From an uncultured Gammaproteobacteria bacterium (GTDB lineage Bacteria > Patescibacteriota > Patescibacteriia > UBA1558 > GWA2-36-10): a stretch of 64,000 nucleotides of DNA. Shown piece after piece: positions 29,982-45,220 of the stretch. Numbering within the stretch: the first letter of the stretch is position 1; each line of letters begins with the position of its first letter. The notes beneath the pieces are model-generated. The model was not told where the DNA came from. It searched no databases and saw only the letters and a program-made list of their open reading frames with translations. The stretch is taken from positions 30,182 to 94,181 of the forward strand of contig CAZEWH010000002.1 of NCBI GenBank assembly GCA_964515785.1, given 5' to 3'. The translations under genes and the position numbers were made by a program.

Positions 29982-30395
29982 ATGGCACAAAAGAAAACCA
30001 ATAAAGATTATATTCCAGCTGTTGGCAAACGCAAGACTTCTATTGCTCGTGTTCGTCTTTTGCATGACAAAGTCAATAGCATTAAGATAGTTATTAATAA
30101 TAAAGATTATACAGAGTATTTACCATACTTTGAATTACAAAATATTGTCTTAGAGCCTTTGAAAAAAGTAGGTCAAGACAAAGTATCTATTTCTGTCAAA
30201 GTACATGGTGGTGGTCCAAAAGGCCAAGCTGAAGCTATCCGACATGGTATTTCTCGTGCTTTACTCAAACTAGACGAAGAATTACGTCCAACTTTGAAAA
30301 AAGAAGGATTCTTAACTCGCGATGCTCGTCGTAAAGAACGTAAGAAACCAGGTTTGAAAAAAGCCCGCAAAGCCCCACAGTGGAGCAAACGTTAA
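29982..30395 (+). CDS. rpsI: 30S ribosomal protein S9
   Basis: [19 protein letters not shown]...[11 protein letters not shown]-terminus. Confidence 0.95.
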
Positions 30396-35102: not shown

Positions 35103-35969
35103 ATGTCTAGACCAGATTTTTCTATTATTATTGTTAATTGGAAAGTTAGAGCATTATTAGAAAAATGCTTAGATTCTATATATAAAAATAGTCAGGATAT
35201 CAATCTAGAAATAATTGTAGTAGACAATGATTCTCGTGATGGCACTTCAGAAATGATGATGATGCAATATCCTGATGCTAAAATGATTGCTTTGGCACAC
35301 AACTCTGGTTTTGCCAAGGCCAATAATTTGGCTATTAATCAAGCTAAAGGAAAATATTTATTTATATTAAATCCTGATACTGAAGTTTTACCAGATTTTT
35401 TTAGTATTACTAAACAATATCTGGATAATCATCCAGATGTATCTATAATGGGTCCGAAGATATTGAACCCTGACAAGACTTTGCAATTGTCTATTCGTAA
35501 ATTTCCAAATCTATTGTCACAGGTTTTTATTATGTTGAAATTACGTAATATTTTGGTAGATAGCAAGTTGTTGGCCAATTATTTATTGTTTGATTTTGAT
35601 TATGACAAAGAACAAGATGTAGAGCAGATTATGGGGGCAGCTATGGTAATCCGTCGTGAAACTTTTGATAAGATCGGTTTGTTTGATGAAAGGTTTTTCG
35701 TATGGTTTGAAGAAATTGATTTATGTAAACGAACTCATCAAGCTGGATTTAGGATTAGATATTTTCCTGGAGCACAGATTATTCATCATGGTGGCTCTAG
35801 TTTTAATAAATCAAAAGTATTTTATAAGCAGTTGATTTTTGATAGTAGTTTGATTAAATATTTTTTCAAGCACAAGCCAATTTGGCAATTGTTAGTAATT
35901 TTATTAATAGTGCCTATTAATTTATTTTTGACTTTATTGTATGTTATTTTTCTCTACAACAAAGAATAA
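35103..35969 (+). CDS. GT2 family glycosyltransferase
   Basis: FSIIIVNW ... VVDNDSRDGT ... ILNPDT GT2 motifs. Confidence 0.8.
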   Translation: MSRPDFSIIIVNWKVRALLEKCLDSIYKNSQDINLEIIVVDNDSRDGTSEMMMMQYPDAKMIALAHNSGFAKANNLAINQAKGKYLFILNPDTEVLPDFFSITKQYLDNHPDVSIMGPKILNPDKTLQLSIRKFPNLLSQVFIMLKLRNILVDSKLLANYLLFDFDYDKEQDVEQIMGAAMVIRRETFDKIGLFDERFFVWFEEIDLCKRTHQAGFRIRYFPGAQIIHHGGSSFNKSKVFYKQLIFDSSLIKYFFKHKPIWQLLVILLIVPINLFLTLLYVIFLYNKE

Positions 35970-37374
35970 ATTTTTATTTTGGACTAGTATATTTTTGTTA
36001 GCTGAAATTTTTTCTTGGCTAGCTTTTTATTTTAATTGGTTAAATTTATTTGTTTTATTAATTATAGCTTTTCTTACTATTATACTAATTTGGCGGAAAC
36101 CAATTTTTATGATTTATATTCCCTTGGCAGAAATTGTTTGGGGTTCACTAGGACATAGTTTTGATTATGGGTTTTTTAGTATTAGATTAGTTATTTTTTT
36201 AATAGTTGTTTTAATTTGGTTTGGTAGAAACATTTTTAAAATTAAAAAATGGCGAATTGTTAATGACACTAGATTGTGGCCAGTTTATTTATTAATTATT
36301 TTTTTGATTATATTAGGTATAGCGTCTGGATATTATAAAGGTTTTTCAAAGCTTGATATTTTCTTGGATGTTAATGCTTATTTTTATTTATTATATTTAC
36401 CAATTTGGCATCAAGTTTATGATAAAAAATATTTAAAAAATATTTTTATTATTATCAAAGCAGCTGTTTTAGTTATTACCCTCAAGACTTTAATAGTTTT
36501 CAATATTTTTAGTCAGTATTTGCATGGTATAGATAATGATTTTTATCGCTGGATTAGAGATACACGCACAGGAGAAATTACAGATATGGGTAATAATTTT
36601 TATAGAATATTTTTTCAATCACAATTTTATTTGTTGATAGCTTGGTTTTGGTTGTTTATAAAAAATTGGCAAAAATTTATTTGGCCAAGATTTATTTTCT
36701 TAAGTTTGATATCAGCCGCTTTATTAATAAGTCTATCGCGTAGTTTTTGGTTAGGTGGAGCAGTGGCTTTAGTGTTTTTATTTATTAATTTATTGATTTT
36801 AAATAAACAAAAATTTTGGCTGCATGTTTTGCGAGTATTAGCTATAGGCTGTAGTGCTTTTTTGCTAGTTCAGATTTTTTATAATGTTCCCCATATAAAT
36901 ACTATAAATGTTTTACAGCAACGCCCTACAAATATTGATGAACCAGCAGTCAATAGTCGTCTGCAATTATGGAATCCTATATTGCAGGGGATAAAGCAAT
37001 ATCCTGTTACTGGTCATGGTTTTGGTAAACAAATTACTTATTATTCTCAAGATCCTCGTATAAATGGCTCACATTCAGTCTATGCTTTTGAATGGGGTTG
37101 GTTGGATATGTGGCTCAAAGGTGGCTTTATTTTTGTCTTGTCTTTTCTTTATTGGTTGTATTTGCTTTATAAGCGATCCTATGGCATCATAAAGCATGAT
37201 ATTCAAACTAGTTTATTTGTATTATCTAGTATTACTAGTTTGATAGTTATTCATTTTTTTACACCATATCTCAATCATCCACTTGGATTTGCTTTATTAA
37301 TTTTAGTTACCATTTTACTTATCTATGAACAAACAACCGATCATCACTATAAGTCTTTTAACTTGGAACGGTGA
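35941..37374 (+). CDS. O-antigen ligase/polymerase-like polytopic membrane protein (Wzy/WaaL family)
   Basis: 477 aa, at least 10 TM helices, with a large loop containing R/H residues (SLSRSFWLGG...HGFG) as in the Wzy_C family. Family call is from topology and context. Confidence 0.5.
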   Translation: MLFFSTTKNKFLFWTSIFLLAEIFSWLAFYFNWLNLFVLLIIAFLTIILIWRKPIFMIYIPLAEIVWGSLGHSFDYGFFSIRLVIFLIVVLIWFGRNIFKIKKWRIVNDTRLWPVYLLIIFLIILGIASGYYKGFSKLDIFLDVNAYFYLLYLPIWHQVYDKKYLKNIFIIIKAAVLVITLKTLIVFNIFSQYLHGIDNDFYRWIRDTRTGEITDMGNNFYRIFFQSQFYLLIAWFWLFIKNWQKFIWPRFIFLSLISAALLISLSRSFWLGGAVALVFLFINLLILNKQKFWLHVLRVLAIGCSAFLLVQIFYNVPHINTINVLQQRPTNIDEPAVNSRLQLWNPILQGIKQYPVTGHGFGKQITYYSQDPRINGSHSVYAFEWGWLDMWLKGGFIFVLSFLYWLYLLYKRSYGIIKHDIQTSLFVLSSITSLIVIHFFTPYLNHPLGFALLILVTILLIYEQTTDHHYKSFNLER

Positions 37375-38320
37375 GCGCTATTTACCATGGCTGCTCAAGA
37401 GTCTAAAAGCCCAGACATTTAGTGACTGGAAGCTTTTGGTATTGGATAATGCTTCTTCTGATAGGTCTTTGGATATTGTTAAAGAAGAAGTACCACAAGC
37501 CAAAATTATTCAACAAAAGAAAAACATTGGTTTTGACAAAGGTCATAATATGTTGATCAATTGGTCTAATTCTGAATATGTTTTAGTTTTGAATCAAGAT
37601 ATTATTTTGGATAAAGATTATCTATCTAAGTTGGTTACTTTTATGGAAGTCAATAAAAAAGTAGCTTCTTGTGCGGGTAAAATTATGCATTGGGATTTTG
37701 ACGAAGGTCTAAAAACAAAAATCATTGATTCCTTTGGCATCAAGGTTGATCGCAAAAGATCTGCTGTTGATATTGCTCAGGGTAAGCAAGATTATAAAGT
37801 AGGTAATCGGGAAGTTTTTGGTTTATCAGCAGCTGCGACCCTATATCGTCGTCAGGCTTTAGATCTTGTAGCTTTTAGTCATGGTAGTGGTAATCTAGAA
37901 TATTTTGATGAAGATTATTTTGCTTATAAAGAAGATATAGATTTGTCTTGGAGATTACGTCTTTGTGGTTGGGAAAATTGGATGGTCTCTAGTACCAAGG
38001 CTTATCATCATCGGACTGTTTCTGGTAATGGATCTTTACGTGCCAAACGTAAACTAAGAACTACAGTCAACAAATTGTCATATCGTAATCACCTTATGAC
38101 TATTTATAAAAATAGTTTTTTCAAGAATTATATTAAAGATTATTGGTATATAAAATTTTATGAATTCAAAAAATTTATTTATTTCTTAATTTTTGAAAGG
38201 TCAACTCTAAGTGGTCTGACAGAATTTATAAAATCAATTCCTAGATTAAATAAAAAAAGAAAATATATAAAAAAACATCGTCGTGTCAAAGCAGACGATA
38301 TTTATCGGTGGTTTGCCTAA
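37325..38320 (+). CDS. GT2 family glycosyltransferase (the start is probably an internal Met downstream of the track start)
   Basis: ITISLLTWNGERYL ... LVLDNASSDRS ... VLNQDI motifs. Confidence 0.75.
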   Translation: MNKQPIITISLLTWNGERYLPWLLKSLKAQTFSDWKLLVLDNASSDRSLDIVKEEVPQAKIIQQKKNIGFDKGHNMLINWSNSEYVLVLNQDIILDKDYLSKLVTFMEVNKKVASCAGKIMHWDFDEGLKTKIIDSFGIKVDRKRSAVDIAQGKQDYKVGNREVFGLSAAATLYRRQALDLVAFSHGSGNLEYFDEDYFAYKEDIDLSWRLRLCGWENWMVSSTKAYHHRTVSGNGSLRAKRKLRTTVNKLSYRNHLMTIYKNSFFKNYIKDYWYIKFYEFKKFIYFLIFERSTLSGLTEFIKSIPRLNKKRKYIKKHRRVKADDIYRWFA

Positions 38321-38323
38321 AAT

Positions 38324-39151
38324 ATGGATTTATCAATTGTTATATTAAATTATAAAAACAAAAACCTTATCAAAGAATTATTAAAAAACTTTGCTGAGTT
38401 AAAATTGCATTATAATTATGAAATTATTGTAGTTGATAATAATTCTAGAGACGGAGTAGAGGAGATAGCCAAAAAATTTAATGTAAAATTTATCCAGAGC
38501 AAAAAAAACAAAGGTTTTGCTGCTGGCAATAATATTGGTATTAAGCAAGCTTTAGGAAAATATATTATAATTTGTAATCCTGATTTGGCTATTTTGTCTG
38601 ATGCTATTCAGGTCATGTATAATTATATGGAAATTCATCCAGAAGTAGGTCTAGCTGGCCCACGACTGATCAATGCTGACAAATCAATCCAATATTCTTG
38701 TACCCGATTTCCTGATTGGCATTTGCCCATCTATCGTCGTACAAGTTTGGGTAAGGGTCGCCGTGGCCAGGCTTGGCTGGATAATTATTTGATGAAAGAT
38801 ATTAATCATAAACAAAATTTTTATACTCCAGCTTTATTTGGTGCTTGTATGATTATTAGACAATCTGCCTTAGAAAAAGTTGGCTTATTAGACGAACGTT
38901 ATTTTATGTATATGGAAGATCTTGATTGGTCACGAAGATTTTGGGAAAATAATTATAAAGTAGCTTATATTGGACAAGCTGAGATTATTCATTTGCATCG
39001 TCGCGAATCTGCAGAGTCAAATATCTTCAAATCTTTATTTGCTAAATCTGCTCGCTATCATATTTTTAGTTTTATAAAATATCTCAAAAAATTTAAAGGT
39101 AAACAATTACCTCGTGTCATCTCTACTGAAACGGAGAGATCTGAAAGATAG
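38324..39151 (+). CDS. GT2 family glycosyltransferase
   Basis: LSIVILNYKN ... VVDNNSRDG ... ICNPDL motifs. Confidence 0.8.
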   Translation: MDLSIVILNYKNKNLIKELLKNFAELKLHYNYEIIVVDNNSRDGVEEIAKKFNVKFIQSKKNKGFAAGNNIGIKQALGKYIIICNPDLAILSDAIQVMYNYMEIHPEVGLAGPRLINADKSIQYSCTRFPDWHLPIYRRTSLGKGRRGQAWLDNYLMKDINHKQNFYTPALFGACMIIRQSALEKVGLLDERYFMYMEDLDWSRRFWENNYKVAYIGQAEIIHLHRRESAESNIFKSLFAKSARYHIFSFIKYLKKFKGKQLPRVISTETERSER

Positions 39152-39188
39152 ATTTTTCGACTTTGCTTGAAATGACAATAAAAATAAA

Positions 39189-39209
39189 AAACTCCTCGTT
39201 GTGAGGAGT
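39189..39209. terminator. Hairpin aactcctc-gttg-gaggagtt; terminator of the minus-strand small-protein pair and probably also of the + GT operon
   Basis: 8-bp stem with a T-rich tract on the minus side (revcomp of 39170-39188). Confidence 0.5.
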
Positions 39210-39409
39210 TAATACAAAGGCTTTCTGGATATCCATTGCTTTTGGAATAATTTCCAAAATTTTTTGACAGGTTCACCAAATAAGATAACAGCTCCTATGA
39301 TTGGTAATACTATCTTATACATCCACCACAGTGGTTCAAAGAGGAAACTGAGGAACATCAGAAAAAGTAAAGTAGTTATGATCAGGGCTGGCAAGAAGTG
39401 TTTGAACAT
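39209..39409 (-). CDS. Small 2-TM membrane protein (66 aa), hypothetical
   Basis: Hydrophobic helices ALIITTLLFLMFLSFLF and IVLPIIGAVILFG. Higher GC than the core. Confidence 0.45.
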   Translation of the reverse strand: MFKHFLPALIITTLLFLMFLSFLFEPLWWMYKIVLPIIGAVILFGEPVKKFWKLFQKQWISRKPLY

Positions 39410-39412
39410 ATA

Positions 39413-39580
39413 TCAATCCCTTCCAAGTTGAGTAGCCAAATATGGCGGTGTGAATATAATCCCAAGGACTGCTAAGATTATTAAACCAACTACCCAAGTA
39501 GCTAGTATGCCTACAGTTAAGAAGGCAAAAAGACTAGAGATCATAAAGAATGCTTTGAACAGAGACAGTATGGCACGCAT
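39413..39580 (-). CDS. Small 2-TM membrane protein (55 aa); not in the ORF track. Co-transcribed upstream partner of the 66-aa protein.
   Basis: Hand translation gives MRAILSLFKAFFMISSLFAFLTVGILATWVVGLIILAVLGIIFTPPYLATQLGRD. AGGGGGG SD upstream. Its stop lies 3 nt before the next ATG. Confidence 0.4.
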   Translation of the reverse strand: MRAILSLFKAFFMISSLFAFLTVGILATWVVGLIILAVLGIIFTPPYLATQLGRD

Positions 39581-39618
39581 TTTGCCCCCCTTTCAGTGAA
39601 GAGAACTAAGAACAAAAT

Positions 39619-39647
39619 AAGCCTAGCAAGCTATAGATTTTTTGTCA
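39619..39647 (-). promoter_or_regulatory. Candidate promoter TTGACA-N17-TAGGCT for the small-protein pair (minus strand)
   Basis: Exact TTGACA (revcomp of 39642-39647) overlapping the T-run of the upstream terminator; 17-nt spacer. Confidence 0.35.
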
Positions 39648-39680
39648 AAAAAATCCCCCGACCAAGTTTCAGTCGAGGGG
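39648..39680 (-). terminator. Intrinsic terminator of the 141-aa gene (cccctcgac...gtcggggg + TTTTTTT on minus)
   Basis: GC stem with one bulge followed by a 7-nt T-run on the minus strand. Confidence 0.55.
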
Positions 39681-40094
39681 TTTGTATATTCTGCGTAGCC
39701 TAGATATTAGCGCTACGCTAGGAACTTTCTTAGATATTAATTCCCAGTCTTCTAGGGAACAATCACCCAAGTGAAGTAATTCACGAGCAGCTTGCTCGCG
39801 TAATTCTGGTACTAGGTCAATAATACATCTTAAATGTAATTTGATCGGGCAATCTTGTAGAAGAACTAGGGCTGCATCCTTGCGAAAATCTGGAACAGTT
39901 TCGATAATAGCACCGATTTGCCGAAAATTAGGTTTACGCAGCTTTTGATGATGATAGCGGCGCAAAAGCTCTTTGGCAGATTGGCGAGCATGAAATCTGT
40001 TTCCGTAGACCAATTTCTTGAGATAGAAATTGGAGTAAAAGTGGTGTAACCTCCAGTTTTGCCACCAGTCTCGAAGTTTTTCGAGTGTGTACAT
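39669..40094 (-). CDS. Hypothetical basic protein (141 aa)
   Basis: AGGGAG SD 7 nt upstream of the ATG. About 45% GC. No TM segment. Rich in R/H/L. No family recognised. Confidence 0.5.
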   Translation of the reverse strand: MYTLEKLRDWWQNWRLHHFYSNFYLKKLVYGNRFHARQSAKELLRRYHHQKLRKPNFRQIGAIIETVPDFRKDAALVLLQDCPIKLHLRCIIDLVPELREQAARELLHLGDCSLEDWELISKKVPSVALISRLRRIYKPLD

Positions 40095-40243
40095 GGTGAA
40101 CTCCCTATTTGTAGACGAAAAGAATGTGCTAGAGAATACTTATTAGTATATCATATTTATAGCGTTTTGTCAACGTATAGTGTTTTGTGGTTGATTTTTA
40201 GCCCAAAATTAGCTATCATTATTGTATAATTTAATTAGATTTT

Positions 40244-41740
40244 ATGCCGCAAACAAAACAAAACAGCACTGATATTAACGACGAATATCAGCAAAGATTA
40301 GCTAAAATGGAACAATTACAAGACAGTATAGACCCTTATCCTGCTCGTACAAAGCGTAGTTTATTAGTGGCTGATTTTTTATCTAAATTTAAAGATTTAC
40401 TCAAATCCCAGAAAAAACAAGTTTTAGCTGGTCGGATTATTAGTATTCGCTTGCAAGGCGGTTCTTGTTTTCTTAATTTTGTAGATGAATCTGGTAAATT
40501 ACAAGCTTTTTTACGTAAAGATAATTTAGGTGAAGATAAATTTAAAGATTTTAAAAAGAATTTTGATCAAGGTGATTTTGTAGAATTTACAGGTACTGCT
40601 TTTGAAACTAAGACTAAAGAATCAAGTATTTTGGTATCTGATATCAAAATGTTGTCAAAGACTTTGATGCCTTTACCAGATGAATATTATGGCCTCAAAG
40701 ATCCTGATCTTAGATATAGAAAACGTTATCTTGATTTACTAGTTAATCCCGAAGTTAAGAAAATTTTTGACTTACGTAGTCAGATTTTCAAGTTTATTAG
40801 AAATTATTTTGATAAACAAGGTTTTACAGAAGTAGATACTCCTATTTTGCAATCTGTAGCAGGAGGCGCTACTGCTCAACCTTTTATTACTCATCACAAA
40901 GCTTTAGATATTGATTTGTATTTACGGGTAGCCCCAGAACTTTATCTCAAAAGACTTATAATCGGCGGTTATGAAAAAGTCTATGAAATGGCTCGCTGTT
41001 TTCGTAATGAAGGCATAGATTATCAACACAATCCAGAATTTACCCAGATTGAATTTTATTGGGCTTACAAAGATTATGAATTTTTGATGGGCTTTATGGA
41101 AAAATTTATGGCCGCTCTAGTCAAAGAAGTGAATGGCGGCAAACTCAAAGTCAAAAATGGCAAAGATATTTTAGATTTTACTCCGCCATATCCTCGGATA
41201 GATTTTAAAGAAGCTTTAGATAAAGCTCTAAACATAGACATTGACAAGACTAGTGATAAAGATCTAGCTGATTTAGCCAAAAAAGCTAAACTGCCAATAG
41301 ATAAAACTTGGGGTAGAGGAAAGTTGCTTGATGAACTTTACAAAAAATATGTTCGCCAAGATATTATACAGCCAGCGTTTTTGATCAATCATCCTCTTGA
41401 GTTATCGCCATTATCTAAAAAGATTCCAGACAGACCAAACTATGTAGAGCGTTTTCAACTCTTGGTCAAAACCGCTGAAGTTTGTAATGCTTTTTCAGAG
41501 CTAAATGATCCTATTGATCAGGAAGAACGATTTAAAGAACAAAAGAAACTTCGTGAAGCAGGGGATGAAGAAGCTCAAGGTGCTGATGCAGAGTTTGTCG
41601 AAGCTCTCAAACATGGTATGCCACCAACCGCTGGGCTTGGTATGGGCATTGATAGATTAGTGATGTTATTGGGTGATATAGAAAATATCAAAGAAGTTAT
41701 TTTATTTCCAACTATGAGACCTAAAAATGAGAATAAATAA
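40244..41740 (+). CDS. lysS: Lysine--tRNA ligase (class II)
   Basis: N-terminal OB anticodon-binding domain. Class II motifs (FRNEG..., GGLGMGIDRLVMLL). Confidence 0.9.
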   Translation: MPQTKQNSTDINDEYQQRLAKMEQLQDSIDPYPARTKRSLLVADFLSKFKDLLKSQKKQVLAGRIISIRLQGGSCFLNFVDESGKLQAFLRKDNLGEDKFKDFKKNFDQGDFVEFTGTAFETKTKESSILVSDIKMLSKTLMPLPDEYYGLKDPDLRYRKRYLDLLVNPEVKKIFDLRSQIFKFIRNYFDKQGFTEVDTPILQSVAGGATAQPFITHHKALDIDLYLRVAPELYLKRLIIGGYEKVYEMARCFRNEGIDYQHNPEFTQIEFYWAYKDYEFLMGFMEKFMAALVKEVNGGKLKVKNGKDILDFTPPYPRIDFKEALDKALNIDIDKTSDKDLADLAKKAKLPIDKTWGRGKLLDELYKKYVRQDIIQPAFLINHPLELSPLSKKIPDRPNYVERFQLLVKTAEVCNAFSELNDPIDQEERFKEQKKLREAGDEEAQGADAEFVEALKHGMPPTAGLGMGIDRLVMLLGDIENIKEVILFPTMRPKNENK

Positions 41741-42320
41741 ATTATTAATAGCTAGTCAAAATCCAGGAAAGTTTGCAGAAATATCAGAACATTTGGCCAA
41801 GACAGGTATTGATTTGGTATCTTTGCATGATTTGAATATTACTCAAGACTATGAAGAAACTGGTACTACTTTTGAGGAAAATGCTGTAGCTAAAGCTAGA
41901 TTTTACCATCAATTATCGGGATTACCCACTTTGGCCGATGATTCTGGTTTATCTGTTGATGCTTTAAACGGAGAGCCTGGCATACATTCTCGCCGTTGGC
42001 CTGGCTATGCGGCTTCTGATCAAGAATTATTAGATATGTTGATGTCTAAGCTTGAAAGCACACCATTAGAAGATAGAACAGCTAAATTTAGAACTGTAAC
42101 TGCTATTGTCGATGAACAAAATATGTGGATTGGACAAGGACAAATAGCTGGGACTATTTTAGAAAAACCAGCTTCTGAAATAGAAGAAGGCTTGCCATTT
42201 AGCTGTGTTTTTCAACCCGATGGTTATAACAAAGTTTTTTCCCAACTAACAAACCAAGAAAAAAATAGTATTAGCCATCGTGGCCATGCTATCGAAGAAT
42301 TAATTAAACAATTATTTTAA
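41727..42320 (+). CDS. rdgB: Non-canonical purine NTP pyrophosphatase (RdgB/Ham1 family)
   Basis: [13 protein letters not shown] ... SHRGHA Ham1 signatures. Confidence 0.85.
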
Positions 42321-42324
42321 AAAT

Positions 42325-42885
42325 ATGAGAAACGCAATTTTACTTATTTTATCTATAATTATTGTCATTTTAGGTTATTATTTTTTAATTAAAACAAACG
42401 ATATGAAAACAGCTATTATCAAAACAAACAAAGGTGATATAGAACTAGAACTTTACCATGATAAAGTTCCTAAGACAGTAGAAAATTTTGTCAAACTTGC
42501 CAAAGAAGGATTTTATGATGGAGTATATTTTCATCGTGTTATTCCTAATTTTATGATCCAGACTGGTGATCCTCAAGCCAAAGGAGTAGAGGGTCAAGAT
42601 TTTGTTTATGAGCCAGATGGTAGTAGTCTACCAATTGCAGGTACTGGCGGACCAGATTACAAATTTGCTGACGAATTTCATCCAGAGCTAAAACATGATG
42701 TTCCTGGTATTTTGTCCATGGCAAATTCAGGACCAAATACCAATGGTTCGCAATTTTTTATTACTCATGTAGCTACTCCATGGCTTGATAACAAGCACTC
42801 TGTCTTTGGCAAAGTTGTCGTGGGTATGGAAGTAGTTAATAATATTATTAGAGGAGATAAAATAGAAACAATTATTATAAAATAA
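42325..42885 (+). CDS. Membrane-anchored cyclophilin-type peptidyl-prolyl cis-trans isomerase
   Basis: N-terminal TM helix followed by [15 protein letters not shown] ... [17 protein letters not shown] cyclophilin motifs. Confidence 0.85.
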
Positions 42886-42889
42886 TTAT

Positions 42890-44128
42890 ATGTTGGATAT
42901 AAATTTGATCCGTAATAATAAAAAAGAAATTACCAAAGCTTTATTGAAACGGGTCGACAAAAAAGATCTTGATCTTGATAAAATTATCAAGCTAGATGAT
43001 GAGCGTAAAAAAATATTGCAACAAGTAGAAGAATTAAAGTCTCAGCGCAATAAATCATCAAAAACAAAACCAGATGCCAAGACTATCAAAATGATGAAAA
43101 AACTTGGTGATGATATCAAAGATCTTGATACTAAATTATCAAAAATAGAGGATGATCTAAATACTCACTTATCTGCTTTACCAAATGTTCCAGCTGATGA
43201 TGTTGCAGCTGGTGGAAAAGAAAATAATAAAGTTATCAAGACTTTTGGATCAAAACCTGGTTTTGAGTTTAAACCTAAAGATCATGTTGAATTAGCGACT
43301 GATTTGGGCTTGATTGATTACAAACGAGGTGCCAAGATGTCAGGAGCTGGATTTTGGGTATACATAGGTGATGGAGCTTTGCTTGAATGGGCTTTATTAA
43401 ATTATTTTGTAGATTTTCATAAGCAAAATAATTATCAATTTATGATTCCGCCGTATTTGTTATCAGAAAAATCTGCTTATATCTCTGGGCATTTGCCAAA
43501 GTTTAGAGATGATCTTTATTGGACACAAGATAAGCTTTGTCTCAATGCTACTAGTGAAATGATGTTAGGCAATTATCATGTGGATGAAATTTTAAATGAT
43601 TTGCCCAAAAAGTATTTTGCTTTTTCTCCTTGCTTTCGTCGTGAAGCTGGAGCTTATCGCAAAGAAGAAAGAGGTATGATTCGTGGTCATCAATTTAATA
43701 AGATCGAAATGTTCCAGTTGACTACTCCTGACAAATCATGGGATGCTTTTGCAGAATTACAAGACAATACTGAAAAATTAGTAGAAGGCCTAGGCTTGCA
43801 TTATACTAGTGTGCAGCTTGCAGCTAAAGATGCTAGTGCTGCTATGGCCAAAACTATTGATATTGAAATCTGGCTACCAAGTATGAATACCTATAAAGAA
43901 GTATCTAGTGTATCCAATGCTTTGGATTATCAGGCTCGCCGAGGTAATATAAAATTCAAAGACGAGGATGGTCAAAATAAATTTGTTCATACACTCAATG
44001 CTTCTGGTCTAGCTACTAGCCGTGTTTTACCAGCTATTTTAGAACAATTTCAACAAGCTGATGGTTCTGTGATTATCCCTAAAGTTTTACAAAAGTACAT
44101 GGGGGGTCAAAAAATCTTAAAACCATAA
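42890..44128 (+). CDS. serS: Serine--tRNA ligase
   Basis: N-terminal coiled-coil arm and a class II core (FRREAGAYRKEERGMIRGHQFNKIE, GLATSRVL). Confidence 0.9.
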   Translation: MLDINLIRNNKKEITKALLKRVDKKDLDLDKIIKLDDERKKILQQVEELKSQRNKSSKTKPDAKTIKMMKKLGDDIKDLDTKLSKIEDDLNTHLSALPNVPADDVAAGGKENNKVIKTFGSKPGFEFKPKDHVELATDLGLIDYKRGAKMSGAGFWVYIGDGALLEWALLNYFVDFHKQNNYQFMIPPYLLSEKSAYISGHLPKFRDDLYWTQDKLCLNATSEMMLGNYHVDEILNDLPKKYFAFSPCFRREAGAYRKEERGMIRGHQFNKIEMFQLTTPDKSWDAFAELQDNTEKLVEGLGLHYTSVQLAAKDASAAMAKTIDIEIWLPSMNTYKEVSSVSNALDYQARRGNIKFKDEDGQNKFVHTLNASGLATSRVLPAILEQFQQADGSVIIPKVLQKYMGGQKILKP

Positions 44129-44131
44129 ACA

Positions 44132-45220
44132 ATGCTAACTTGGATAGAGCTTAATAAAAAAAATCTCTTACATAATATTCAGCAATTTAAAAATATAGCT
44201 CCGCAGTCTGCTATTTGGCCGGTAGTCAAATCTAATGCTTATGGTCATGGGGTCAAAGAAGTTGTTGAAATTTTAAACAAAGACAAAAATACTACTGGGT
44301 TTATGGTAGTAAATTTAGATGAGGCTTTAGAATTATCAGATTATACTAGCAAGCCTATCATGGTATTGAGTTATTTTACTAGAGCAGGGGAGAGTCTAAA
44401 AATAGCAGCTGAAAAAAATATATCTTTGCCACTTTGTAGTCTAGAGTGTGCAGATTATTTGGATAGTTTGAATAAAAACTTTTTAGTAAATATAAAAATA
44501 GATACTGGTACTTCGCGACTTGGTTTTACAGTAGAGGAGAGTGAAGAAGCTATCAAATATATTCAAAACAAAAAAAATCTAAAAATAAATAGCATTTATA
44601 CTCATTATGCTGAATCAGAAAGTGCTGATCTAGATTTTACTAAGCAGCAATTTAAAATTTTTAAAAATATTACTAATCAATATTCTGATATTAAAAGCCA
44701 TTCTGTATGTTCAGCAGCTGCTATTTCTTTACCACAAGCCCAGAGTGATATAGTCAGATTAGGTATATCATTGTATGGTTTATGGCCAAGTCAAGAAACC
44801 AAAGATAGAAATAGTATTGATCTTAGGCCAGTATTATCTTGGCAGACAAAAATTATTCAAATCAAAGATATTAAAGCTGGTCAGACTATCGGCTATAATA
44901 GAACATATAAATGCGAGCAGGATTGTAAAATTGCCATCTTACCTGTTGGATATTATGAAGGTTACTCGCGTAGTTTATCTAATAAATCTCAAGTTATTAT
45001 CAAAAATAAAAAATATAATATCAAAGGTAATATTTGTATGAACCTAATGATGATAGAATTGCCTCAAGATACAAATATCAAAGTAGGGGAAGTAGCTACA
45101 CTCTTGGGTAAGCAAGGAGATCAAAAAATTACTGCTGAAGACTTAGCTAGTTTATCTCAGACTATAAATTATGAAATAATTACAAAAATAAATTATAATT
45201 TACCCCGTGTGATTGTTTAA
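44132..45220 (+). CDS. alr: Alanine racemase
   Basis: PVVKSNAYGHGV PLP-binding Lys motif; 362 aa. Confidence 0.85.
   Translation: MLTWIELNKKNLLHNIQQFKNIAPQSAIWPVVKSNAYGHGVKEVVEILNKDKNTTGFMVVNLDEALELSDYTSKPIMVLSYFTRAGESLKIAAEKNISLPLCSLECADYLDSLNKNFLVNIKIDTGTSRLGFTVEESEEAIKYIQNKKNLKINSIYTHYAESESADLDFTKQQFKIFKNITNQYSDIKSHSVCSAAAISLPQAQSDIVRLGISLYGLWPSQETKDRNSIDLRPVLSWQTKIIQIKDIKAGQTIGYNRTYKCEQDCKIAILPVGYYEGYSRSLSNKSQVIIKNKKYNIKGNICMNLMMIELPQDTNIKVGEVATLLGKQGDQKITAEDLASLSQTINYEIITKINYNLPRVIV

Follow-up and report, generated by a model that had tools for sequence, protein, structure and literature searches.

Small membrane proteins such as AcrZ, KdpF, MgtS, and CydX serve larger membrane complexes as accessory or modulatory subunits, and S68/S71 of phage 21 is an example of a class II holin/antiholin. 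The Patescibacteria have reduced genomes full of uncharacterised envelope proteins, among which orphan pairs of mini-proteins such as the one described here are common. Small hydrophobic proteins may also be toxins, as in the type I toxin-antitoxin system TimP/TimR (PMC7667032); bacterial small membrane proteins are likewise the subject of a preprint (bioRxiv 10.1101/511675), and the origins of bacterial ORFan, or lineage-restricted, genes have been reviewed (PMC12315717). Here, we analyze two adjacent open reading frames (ORFs) encoding proteins of 55 and 66 amino acids (aa) on the minus strand of a stretch of 64,000 nucleotides (nt), hereafter the window, which corresponds to positions 30,182 to 94,181 of contig CAZEWH010000002.1 (assembly GCA_964515785.1, deposited as an uncultured Gammaproteobacteria bacterium and placed by GTDB in the Patescibacteriota). 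The pair is very probably a real, independently transcribed bicistronic operon, whose expression is predicted, and the overall reading that we favor, with some reserve, is that of a fast-evolving accessory two-gene operon for small membrane proteins lodged in a variable slot.

Proteins of the AcrZ, KdpF, MgtS, and CydX type resemble the pair in their size (about 30 to 70 aa), in their one or two hydrophobic helices and basic termini, and in being often unannotated and often lineage-restricted. However, they are mostly encoded by single genes in or near the operon of their partner, whereas here two unrelated mini-proteins come with a dedicated promoter and terminator, no sequence similarity, and no identifiable partner. 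ORFans also resemble the pair, being confined to narrow clades, short, atypical in composition, rapidly evolving, and found in variable intergenic slots; yet the ORFan label denotes an origin and not a function, and the pair is in addition arranged as an operon whose regulatory signals are conserved. The description that suits it best is that of an accessory (ORFan) gene pair, either young or in rapid divergence.

The LysS protein of the window finds its best matches among GTDB species representatives in metagenome-assembled genomes of the Patescibacteria group (69 to 76% LysS identity in a LysS-anchored scan). Lineage A designates the window and its 99% twins (L011/L012), lineage B the contigs that carry protein P0002 (L001-L010), and lineage C L095/L096; L094 and L093 are more distant. 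The ENA contigs ERZ23499085 and ERZ23499124 represent lineage A, whereas the ENA contig ERZ4200974 and a JGI contig from 3300028195 represent lineage B. We read the minus strand from 40500 to 38900 together with an ORF listing, which gave the following features for the mini-operon.

39620 to 39648, minus strand: promoter, with a −35 element TTGACA (39648..39643), a 17-nt spacer, and a TG-extended −10 element TAGGCT (39625..39620).
39585 to 39591, minus strand: Shine-Dalgarno sequence AGGGGGG, 4 nt 5′ of the ATG of the 55-aa ORF; its lineage B equivalent is AAGGAG.
39413 to 39580, minus strand: 55-aa ORF, hydrophobic protein with a grand average of hydropathy (GRAVY) of 1.56.
39209 to 39409, minus strand: 66-aa ORF, whose in-frame ATG lies 3 nt past the TGA of the 55-aa ORF.
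39190 to 39210, minus strand: intrinsic terminator overlapping the stop of the 66-aa ORF (ΔG of −11.2 kcal/mol, z of −4.4).

This inventory bears out the structural part of an original prediction, made from the sequence alone, which had listed minus-strand ORFs of 141, 55, and 66 aa, the last two separated by a 3-nt gap, and had placed a separate promoter behind the terminator of the 141-aa gene and ahead of two closely spaced hydrophobic ORFs. The details of that junction, namely, a terminator whose run of seven T residues (T7) leads into an exact TTGACA, followed after 17 nt by TAGGCT and then by AGGGGGG, are all confirmed. The mini-operon promoter scores under the threshold of a consensus scan, and we rely on its 43/48 identity with lineage B and not on the scan. 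The second ORF has its own ATG and a purine-rich stretch upstream. The terminator lies 39 nt from the end of a convergent gene for a family 2 glycosyltransferase (GT2), and lineage B has an equivalent hairpin. Within the 2.5-kb region, we counted 5 terminator-like sites versus 1.3 expected, and 10 promoter-like sites versus 9.5 expected by chance.

Lineage B is syntenic with the window and carries both mini-ORFs (L001 7335-7670). Its ortholog of the 55-aa protein has an identical length, 56% identity, and a canonical AAGGAG Shine-Dalgarno sequence, which upholds the proposal of an unannotated 55-aa gene at this place, a proposal that a lack of conservation of this ORF was to have refuted; the ortholog of the 66-aa protein counts 54 aa, with 63% identity and a truncated basic tail. 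Lineage B retains the start position, the Shine-Dalgarno sequence, the 3-nt gap, and, in the first ORF, a length of 55 codons, and both frames are open and free of insertions and deletions over the first 50 to 55 codons despite a nucleotide divergence of 33 to 39%. In Nei-Gojobori comparisons of lineages A and B, the ratio of the proportions of nonsynonymous and synonymous differences (pN/pS) in frame is 0.42 for the 55-aa ORF and 0.28 for the 66-aa ORF, with differences at codon positions 1/2/3 of 20/16/28 and 16/11/27, respectively; the other two frames contain 2 to 13 stops and yield pN/pS values of 0.69 to 1.08. Furthermore, a 48-nt block comprising the 3′ arm of the upstream terminator, the −35 and −10 elements, and the first transcribed bases is identical at 43 of 48 positions (90%), next to a nucleotide identity of 61 to 67% for the mini-ORFs themselves. 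Based on the conservation in a sister lineage, the coding-type substitutions, and the 90% identical promoter block, we consider the mini-ORFs to be genuine genes. Their evolution is fast, yet constrained by purifying selection. Across the cassette, the lineage B contigs, which come from ten ENA, JGI, and Logan samples, are 99.9 to 100% identical, and polymorphism within the lineages amounts to 0 or 1 single-nucleotide difference, as in clonal lineages, and is hence uninformative on selection.

The relatives that we compared differ in what lies between the last GT2 gene and lysS, the junction that houses the pair.

Window, 39152-40243: genes for proteins of 141, 55, and 66 aa.
Lineage B, L001 5852-7681: genes for proteins of 143, 226, 55, and 54 aa.
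Lineage C, L096 7852-8454: gene for a 143-aa protein only.
L014 5890-6000: empty, 111 nt.
L015 4836-5979: genes for an unrelated 225-aa lipoprotein and an unrelated 67-aa membrane protein with two hydrophobic segments, oriented like the cassette of the window.

Since its contents differ across relatives, we view the GT2-lysS junction as a small variable slot that gathers separately promoted genes for small envelope proteins. In L095/L096, L094, and L093, the convergent GT2 gene ends about 22 to 27 nt beyond the stop of the homolog of the 141-aa gene, and tblastn searches of these loci detected neither of the mini-proteins, nor the 226-aa protein. A tblastn search of 80 lysS-anchored GTDB loci likewise recovered the mini-proteins in lineages A and B only. 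The distances between lineages A, B, and C are roughly equal (LysS 91 to 92% identical, with other genes giving mosaic signals); therefore, the pair was either acquired once the more distant relatives had branched off, with a subsequent loss in lineage C, or gained in an ancestor of lineages A and B.

Both mini-proteins have a pI (isoelectric point) of about 10 and charges confined to their termini, with GRAVY values of 1.56 for the 55-aa protein and 0.87 for the 66-aa protein; judged by this composition, their insertion into the cytoplasmic membrane is a fairly secure prediction. Two transmembrane segments had been attributed to each of them. For the 66-aa protein, this fits the hydropathy profile, with hydrophobic segments at residues ~5 to 24 and 27 to 45, the second being short (13 strongly hydrophobic residues), and with a basic, strongly amphipathic C-terminal tail (hydrophobic moment of 0.66 to 0.77), so that the protein looks like an N-in/C-in hairpin as far as hydropathy tells. 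For the 55-aa protein, it is not confirmed: an AlphaFold2 (AF2) model built from a two-sequence alignment consists of one unbroken helix over residues 2 to 54 (pLDDT, the predicted local distance difference test, of 91), and the hydropathy profile shows a single 42-residue hydrophobic run, the first ~12 to 16 residues being moderately amphipathic. The protein may adopt either one long transmembrane helix with an amphipathic N terminus or a tight hairpin. A profile-profile comparison of their alignments did not detect the 55-aa and 66-aa proteins as paralogs of each other (probability of 0.4%).

We propose that the mini-operon, from promoter to terminator, would have been added downstream of the terminator of the 141-aa gene in only some of the sister lineages, and that the tight spacing of its ORFs probably gives roughly equal amounts of both products. 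Being small, very hydrophobic, and basic, the two products would insert into the cytoplasmic membrane, where they may assemble into a small hetero-oligomeric helical bundle acting on the cell envelope; such a bundle would most likely assist or modulate a larger membrane protein or process as one of its subunits. We advance a hetero-oligomer modulating an envelope function only tentatively, on the basis of the close ORF spacing, the position at the edge of the glycan locus, and what is generally known of small membrane proteins. Several points weigh against this account. The −10 element TAGGCT is weak, matching TATAAT at 3 of 6 positions, and AF2 yields no hairpin for the 55-aa protein. The pair is carried by only two independent lineages, and the substitution statistics represent one pairwise comparison with a saturated dS (synonymous divergence). 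The hetero-oligomer and modulatory-subunit steps would follow from gene arrangement and general knowledge, and the strong, constitutive-looking −35 element and good Shine-Dalgarno sequence may also be compatible with a product that is toxic or lytic and kept in check by its partner.

Such a membrane-permeabilising module, in which one mini-protein would be a holin-like or type I toxin-like membrane disruptor and the other, from the ORF close behind, an antiholin, antitoxin, or immunity partner, is the least improbable of the alternatives, and we consider it unlikely. The 66-aa protein does have the gross features of class II holins, in that it contains two hydrophobic segments, ends in a basic tail, and is predicted to be N-in/C-in, with a second small membrane protein co-encoded here. 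The patchy distribution of the pair, its atypical GC content at third codon positions (GC3), and its deeper synonymous divergence would suit a selfish or horizontally exchanged element, and small toxic membrane proteins are known in bacteria, as exemplified by TimP (PMC7667032). However, none of the three proteins has a match above threshold in Pfam, PHROGs, NCBIfam, or PADLOC, and no holin family of Pfam or PHROGs appears at E values up to 10. We found no homologs of the mini-proteins outside lineages A and B among 5.8 billion protein clusters, no relatives in the viral contigs of IMG/VR, none by tblastn in GenBank phages and plasmids, and no matches in sequence searches of the PDB, while a scan of JGI metagenome DNA gave lineages A and B only. 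Full-text literature searching on small membrane proteins in Patescibacteria returned nothing specific.

In contrast to class II holins, the pair has no lysis cassette, no endolysin or prophage genes nearby, and no dual-start motif, and the basic tail of the 66-aa protein is not conserved, as it is truncated in lineage B. The neighborhood contains no phage, lysis, bacteriocin-export, or defence genes. Type I toxins share with the mini-proteins their small size, hydrophobicity, membrane targeting, patchy distribution, and usual absence from annotations, but they usually have a single transmembrane segment and are controlled by antisense or overlapping small RNAs, whereas the pair consists of two protein genes whose promoter and Shine-Dalgarno sequence look built for steady expression. 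The sole antisense promoter-like site over the pair (39433-39460) is not conserved in lineage B, the number of promoter-like sites being that expected by chance, and scans of the whole window against Rfam and for tRNA genes gave no matches. Topology excepted, every testable feature of membership in the holin or toxin group failed. The analogies to holin/antiholin, bacteriocin/immunity, and toxin/immunity pairs that had been drawn for this locus thus gained no support from any test, and a bacteriocin exporter is also lacking nearby.

The GC content of the span 39150-40243 is 37.5%, well short of the 45% or so originally reported, with values of 41.8% for the 141-aa gene, the highest, 39.9% for the 55-aa ORF, and 34.8% for the 66-aa ORF (window mean of 33.3%). 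GC3 reaches 0.34 to 0.43 in the three cassette genes versus 0.20 to 0.23 in flanking genes, and the identity between lineages A and B is 56 to 65% at the cassette versus 78 to 92% for nine flanking genes. At conserved residues, lineages A and B use identical codons in 68% of the cases in these nine flanking genes (window 35103-45220), taken as a reference, in 43% in the mini-ORFs (Fisher test versus flanks, P = 4 × 10⁻⁵), and in 79% in the 141-aa gene (P = 0.04). The codon discordance, next to a 90% conserved promoter, could reflect a deeper coalescence of the ORFs than of the flanks through exchange of the cassette between lineages, or it could stem from a weak constraint on codon usage, and two lineages cannot separate these sources. 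A second, rather improbable alternative would make the pair a two-component membrane module that recently arose, de novo or by extreme divergence, in episymbiotic bacteria of the candidate phyla radiation (CPR), that is exchanged between lineages as a promoter-to-terminator cassette, and that has a role in conflict or interaction, e.g., as a holin-like/immunity pair or as a surface factor in interactions with hosts or phages. If this were true, the deep synonymous divergence beside the 90% conserved promoter would represent allelic exchange or diversifying turnover.

The third alternative concerns the neighboring gene, which has the following features.

40145 to 40173, minus strand: promoter of the 141-aa gene, with TTGACA, 17 nt, and a TG-extended TATACT, matching 11 of 12 consensus positions.
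39669 to 40094, minus strand: 141-aa gene, encoding a basic protein modeled as an alpha-solenoid, in its own transcription unit.
39649 to 39679, minus strand: intrinsic terminator of the 141-aa gene, an 11-pair stem (39679..39655) followed by T7 (ΔG of −15.9 kcal/mol, z of −3.4 versus shuffles).

The stop codon of this gene sits within the 5′ arm of the terminator stem, which is conserved across lineages A, B, and C, and the T7 tract leads into the −35 element of the next promoter. Its own promoter has a counterpart in lineage B (TTGACA-17-TGaTATAGT), and the homologs in L093 and L094 are also preceded by TTGACA-type promoters. The original prediction had grouped the three genes as one cassette, and a functional module could be imagined in which the alpha-solenoid protein is a cytoplasmic partner or regulator of the membrane mini-proteins: in lineages A and B, the genes lie next to one another in the same orientation, and all three outpace their neighbors in evolution and share a raised GC3. 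We nevertheless consider such a module quite improbable, as it is already largely refuted by synteny. The 141-aa homologs stand alone, without mini-ORFs, in three other lineages; each unit has its own promoter and terminator; and in lineage B an unrelated gene for a 226-aa protein (L001 6525-7205) stands between the 143-aa homolog and the pair. The synonymous behavior of the two units is also opposite, with a codon identity of 79% for the 141-aa gene versus 43% for the pair. Given that the 141-aa gene is served by a strong promoter and a terminator of its own, that its homologs occur without the mini-ORFs, and that lineage B has the 226-aa insertion, the three-gene cassette is unsupported. The 141-aa gene, an older (ancestral) resident of the slot between the glycan locus and lysS, and the mini-operon are independent occupants forming two transcription units, and the mini-operon is probably a lineage-restricted accessory unit without relation to the 141-aa gene.

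The 226-aa protein of lineage B, an orphan, carries a signal peptide at its N terminus and, at its C terminus, a hydrophobic anchor that ends in RIIIIRK, and it has no Pfam match. Its gene possesses its own promoter (TTGACA-17-TATAAA), right after the terminator of the 143-aa gene, and its own terminator.

We find little likelihood, comparable to that of the three-gene module, in the view that the ORFs are nonfunctional, i.e., chance frames in a T-rich transcribed spacer or decaying genes. They are indeed orphan, very short, and fast-evolving, most gene callers skipped both, and hydrophobic ORFs arise readily from T-rich DNA. Against this, frames that stay open without insertions or deletions at such divergence, the contrast in pN/pS between the coding frame (0.28 to 0.42) and the other, stop-ridden frames, and the conservation of start codons, Shine-Dalgarno sites, gap, and terminators all argue for coding genes.

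Slightly less probable still, in our opinion, is a split or recoded single gene, either read through in part at UGA to yield a protein of ~123 aa, which would have up to four hydrophobic segments, or once single, then split and kept functional by termination-reinitiation. The ORFs are in frame in both lineages (TGA-TAT-ATG in lineage A and TGA-CAC-ATG in lineage B), and their ATG codons are 171 nt apart in lineage A (39580 to 39409) and in lineage B (L001 7335 to 7506). In addition, the 66-aa protein has a weak match to DUF4870 (PF09685; 15.2 bits, below the 25-bit gathering threshold) that falls on the second half of the profile (positions 57-90 of 107). However, the prior for two ORFs sharing a frame is 1/3, and the coincidence, being inherited, does not count as two independent observations, while the hypothetical fusion scores lower on DUF4870 (9.2 bits, E value of 1.6) and matches nothing else in Pfam. 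Moreover, TGA is an ordinary stop in this genome, where it terminates 8 of 49 long ORFs and translation table 11 yields intact ORFs, and the second ORF has its own start signals. Given the normal use of TGA and the lack of other Pfam matches for the fusion, we take the ORF arrangement as ordinary tight spacing.

Finally, a two-peptide (class IIb-like) bacteriocin or a bacteriocin immunity pair, suggested by two small, hydrophobic, cationic peptides lying side by side behind one promoter, is hardly credible, as a direct reading reveals no double-glycine leader and no GxxxG motif in either peptide, no ABC exporter/peptidase, immunity, or regulatory genes occur within at least 8 kb on either side, no immunity gene or ABC exporter is linked to the locus in lineages A, B, or C, no family matches were obtained, and the hydrophobicity over 40 or more residues is far above that of secreted bacteriocin peptides.

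The helical-repeat family to which the 141-aa protein belongs is undescribed and has no curated model. It is basic, as originally proposed, with a pI of 9.8 and 26 lysine and arginine versus 16 aspartate and glutamate residues, and it holds about 3.5 copies of a helical-hairpin repeat of ~28 aa (consensus L..II..VP.LREEAA..LL...P...D). The AF2 model (pLDDT of 85; pTM, the predicted template modeling score, of 0.76) contains nine helices arranged as stacked hairpins, as in HEAT, ARM, PUF, and PPR solenoids, from which the protein differs by the length and consensus of its repeat and by its lack of a Pfam repeat model. A Foldseek search of the PDB returned only generic PUF, PPR, and ARM/importin-alpha structures with E values of at least 0.96 and query-normalised template modeling scores of 0.44 to 0.56, and alpha-solenoid is accordingly the modeled fold class of the protein, not a family membership. 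Neither Pfam nor NCBIfam contains a match, ten relatives likewise match no Pfam repeat family, and the best hit of a profile search of PDB sequences with the family was to an unrelated exported protein (E value of 0.036).

Among the 5.8 billion protein clusters, relatives were limited to the 99% twin P0001 and the 65% relative P0002. With the alignment of the 141- and 143-aa proteins as the query, HMMER was run exhaustively against 1.84 billion representatives and identified further full-length homologs, namely, P0005/P0048 of lineage C (143 aa, 66% identity), P0007 (121 aa, ~38%), and P0025 (141 aa, ~33%), whose contigs are L095/L096, L094, and L093. Remote relatives match query residues ~55 to 128 several times per target, in up to 7 or more stretches. 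About 44 representative clusters match the repeat at E values of <1e-3 (P0006-P0047 among the relatives), some of them 200 to 500 aa long with 3 to 7 matched stretches and none in Pfam; two multi-repeat relatives lie on orphan-rich, CPR-like contigs, in contexts without a functional hint. The 141-aa gene evolves relatively fast (dN/dS, the ratio of nonsynonymous to synonymous divergence, of 0.41). The ~28-aa repeat could merit a Pfam entry.

The genes flanking the slot have housekeeping or glycan biosynthesis functions, with a Wzx-like flippase, GT4/GT1 enzymes, three GT2 genes, and Wzy on one side and LysS, Ham1, a peptidyl-prolyl isomerase, SerS, and Alr on the other. In lineages B and C, a NUDIX hydrolase gene (139 to 144 aa) is found between lysS and the Ham1-like gene (L001 3937-4356; L096 5933-6367); the window and its twins have no NUDIX gene, and their lysS overlaps Ham1 by 14 nt (window 41727-41740). 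The sequence TTTTTTGACA has six copies in the window (3971, 9008, 32030, 39260, 39643, and 53660) versus 0.92 expected from shuffles; only the site at 39643 comes after a terminator, and the other five are intragenic.

The contigs from ENA carry calls for neither mini-ORF, those from Logan for the 55-aa ORF only, and a JGI protein (P0004) is a 43-aa truncation starting at Met13; the pair illustrates how standard gene callers miss genes for small membrane proteins. The finding opens no long-standing question and concerns an ordinary accessory pair. If expressed, the two products would add two more unannotated small membrane proteins to those of the Patescibacteria, and the GT2-lysS slot, with its zero to four unrelated, separately promoted genes for small envelope proteins in closely related lineages, lends itself to studies of how ORFan membrane proteins are gained, lost, and rapidly diversified in nature.

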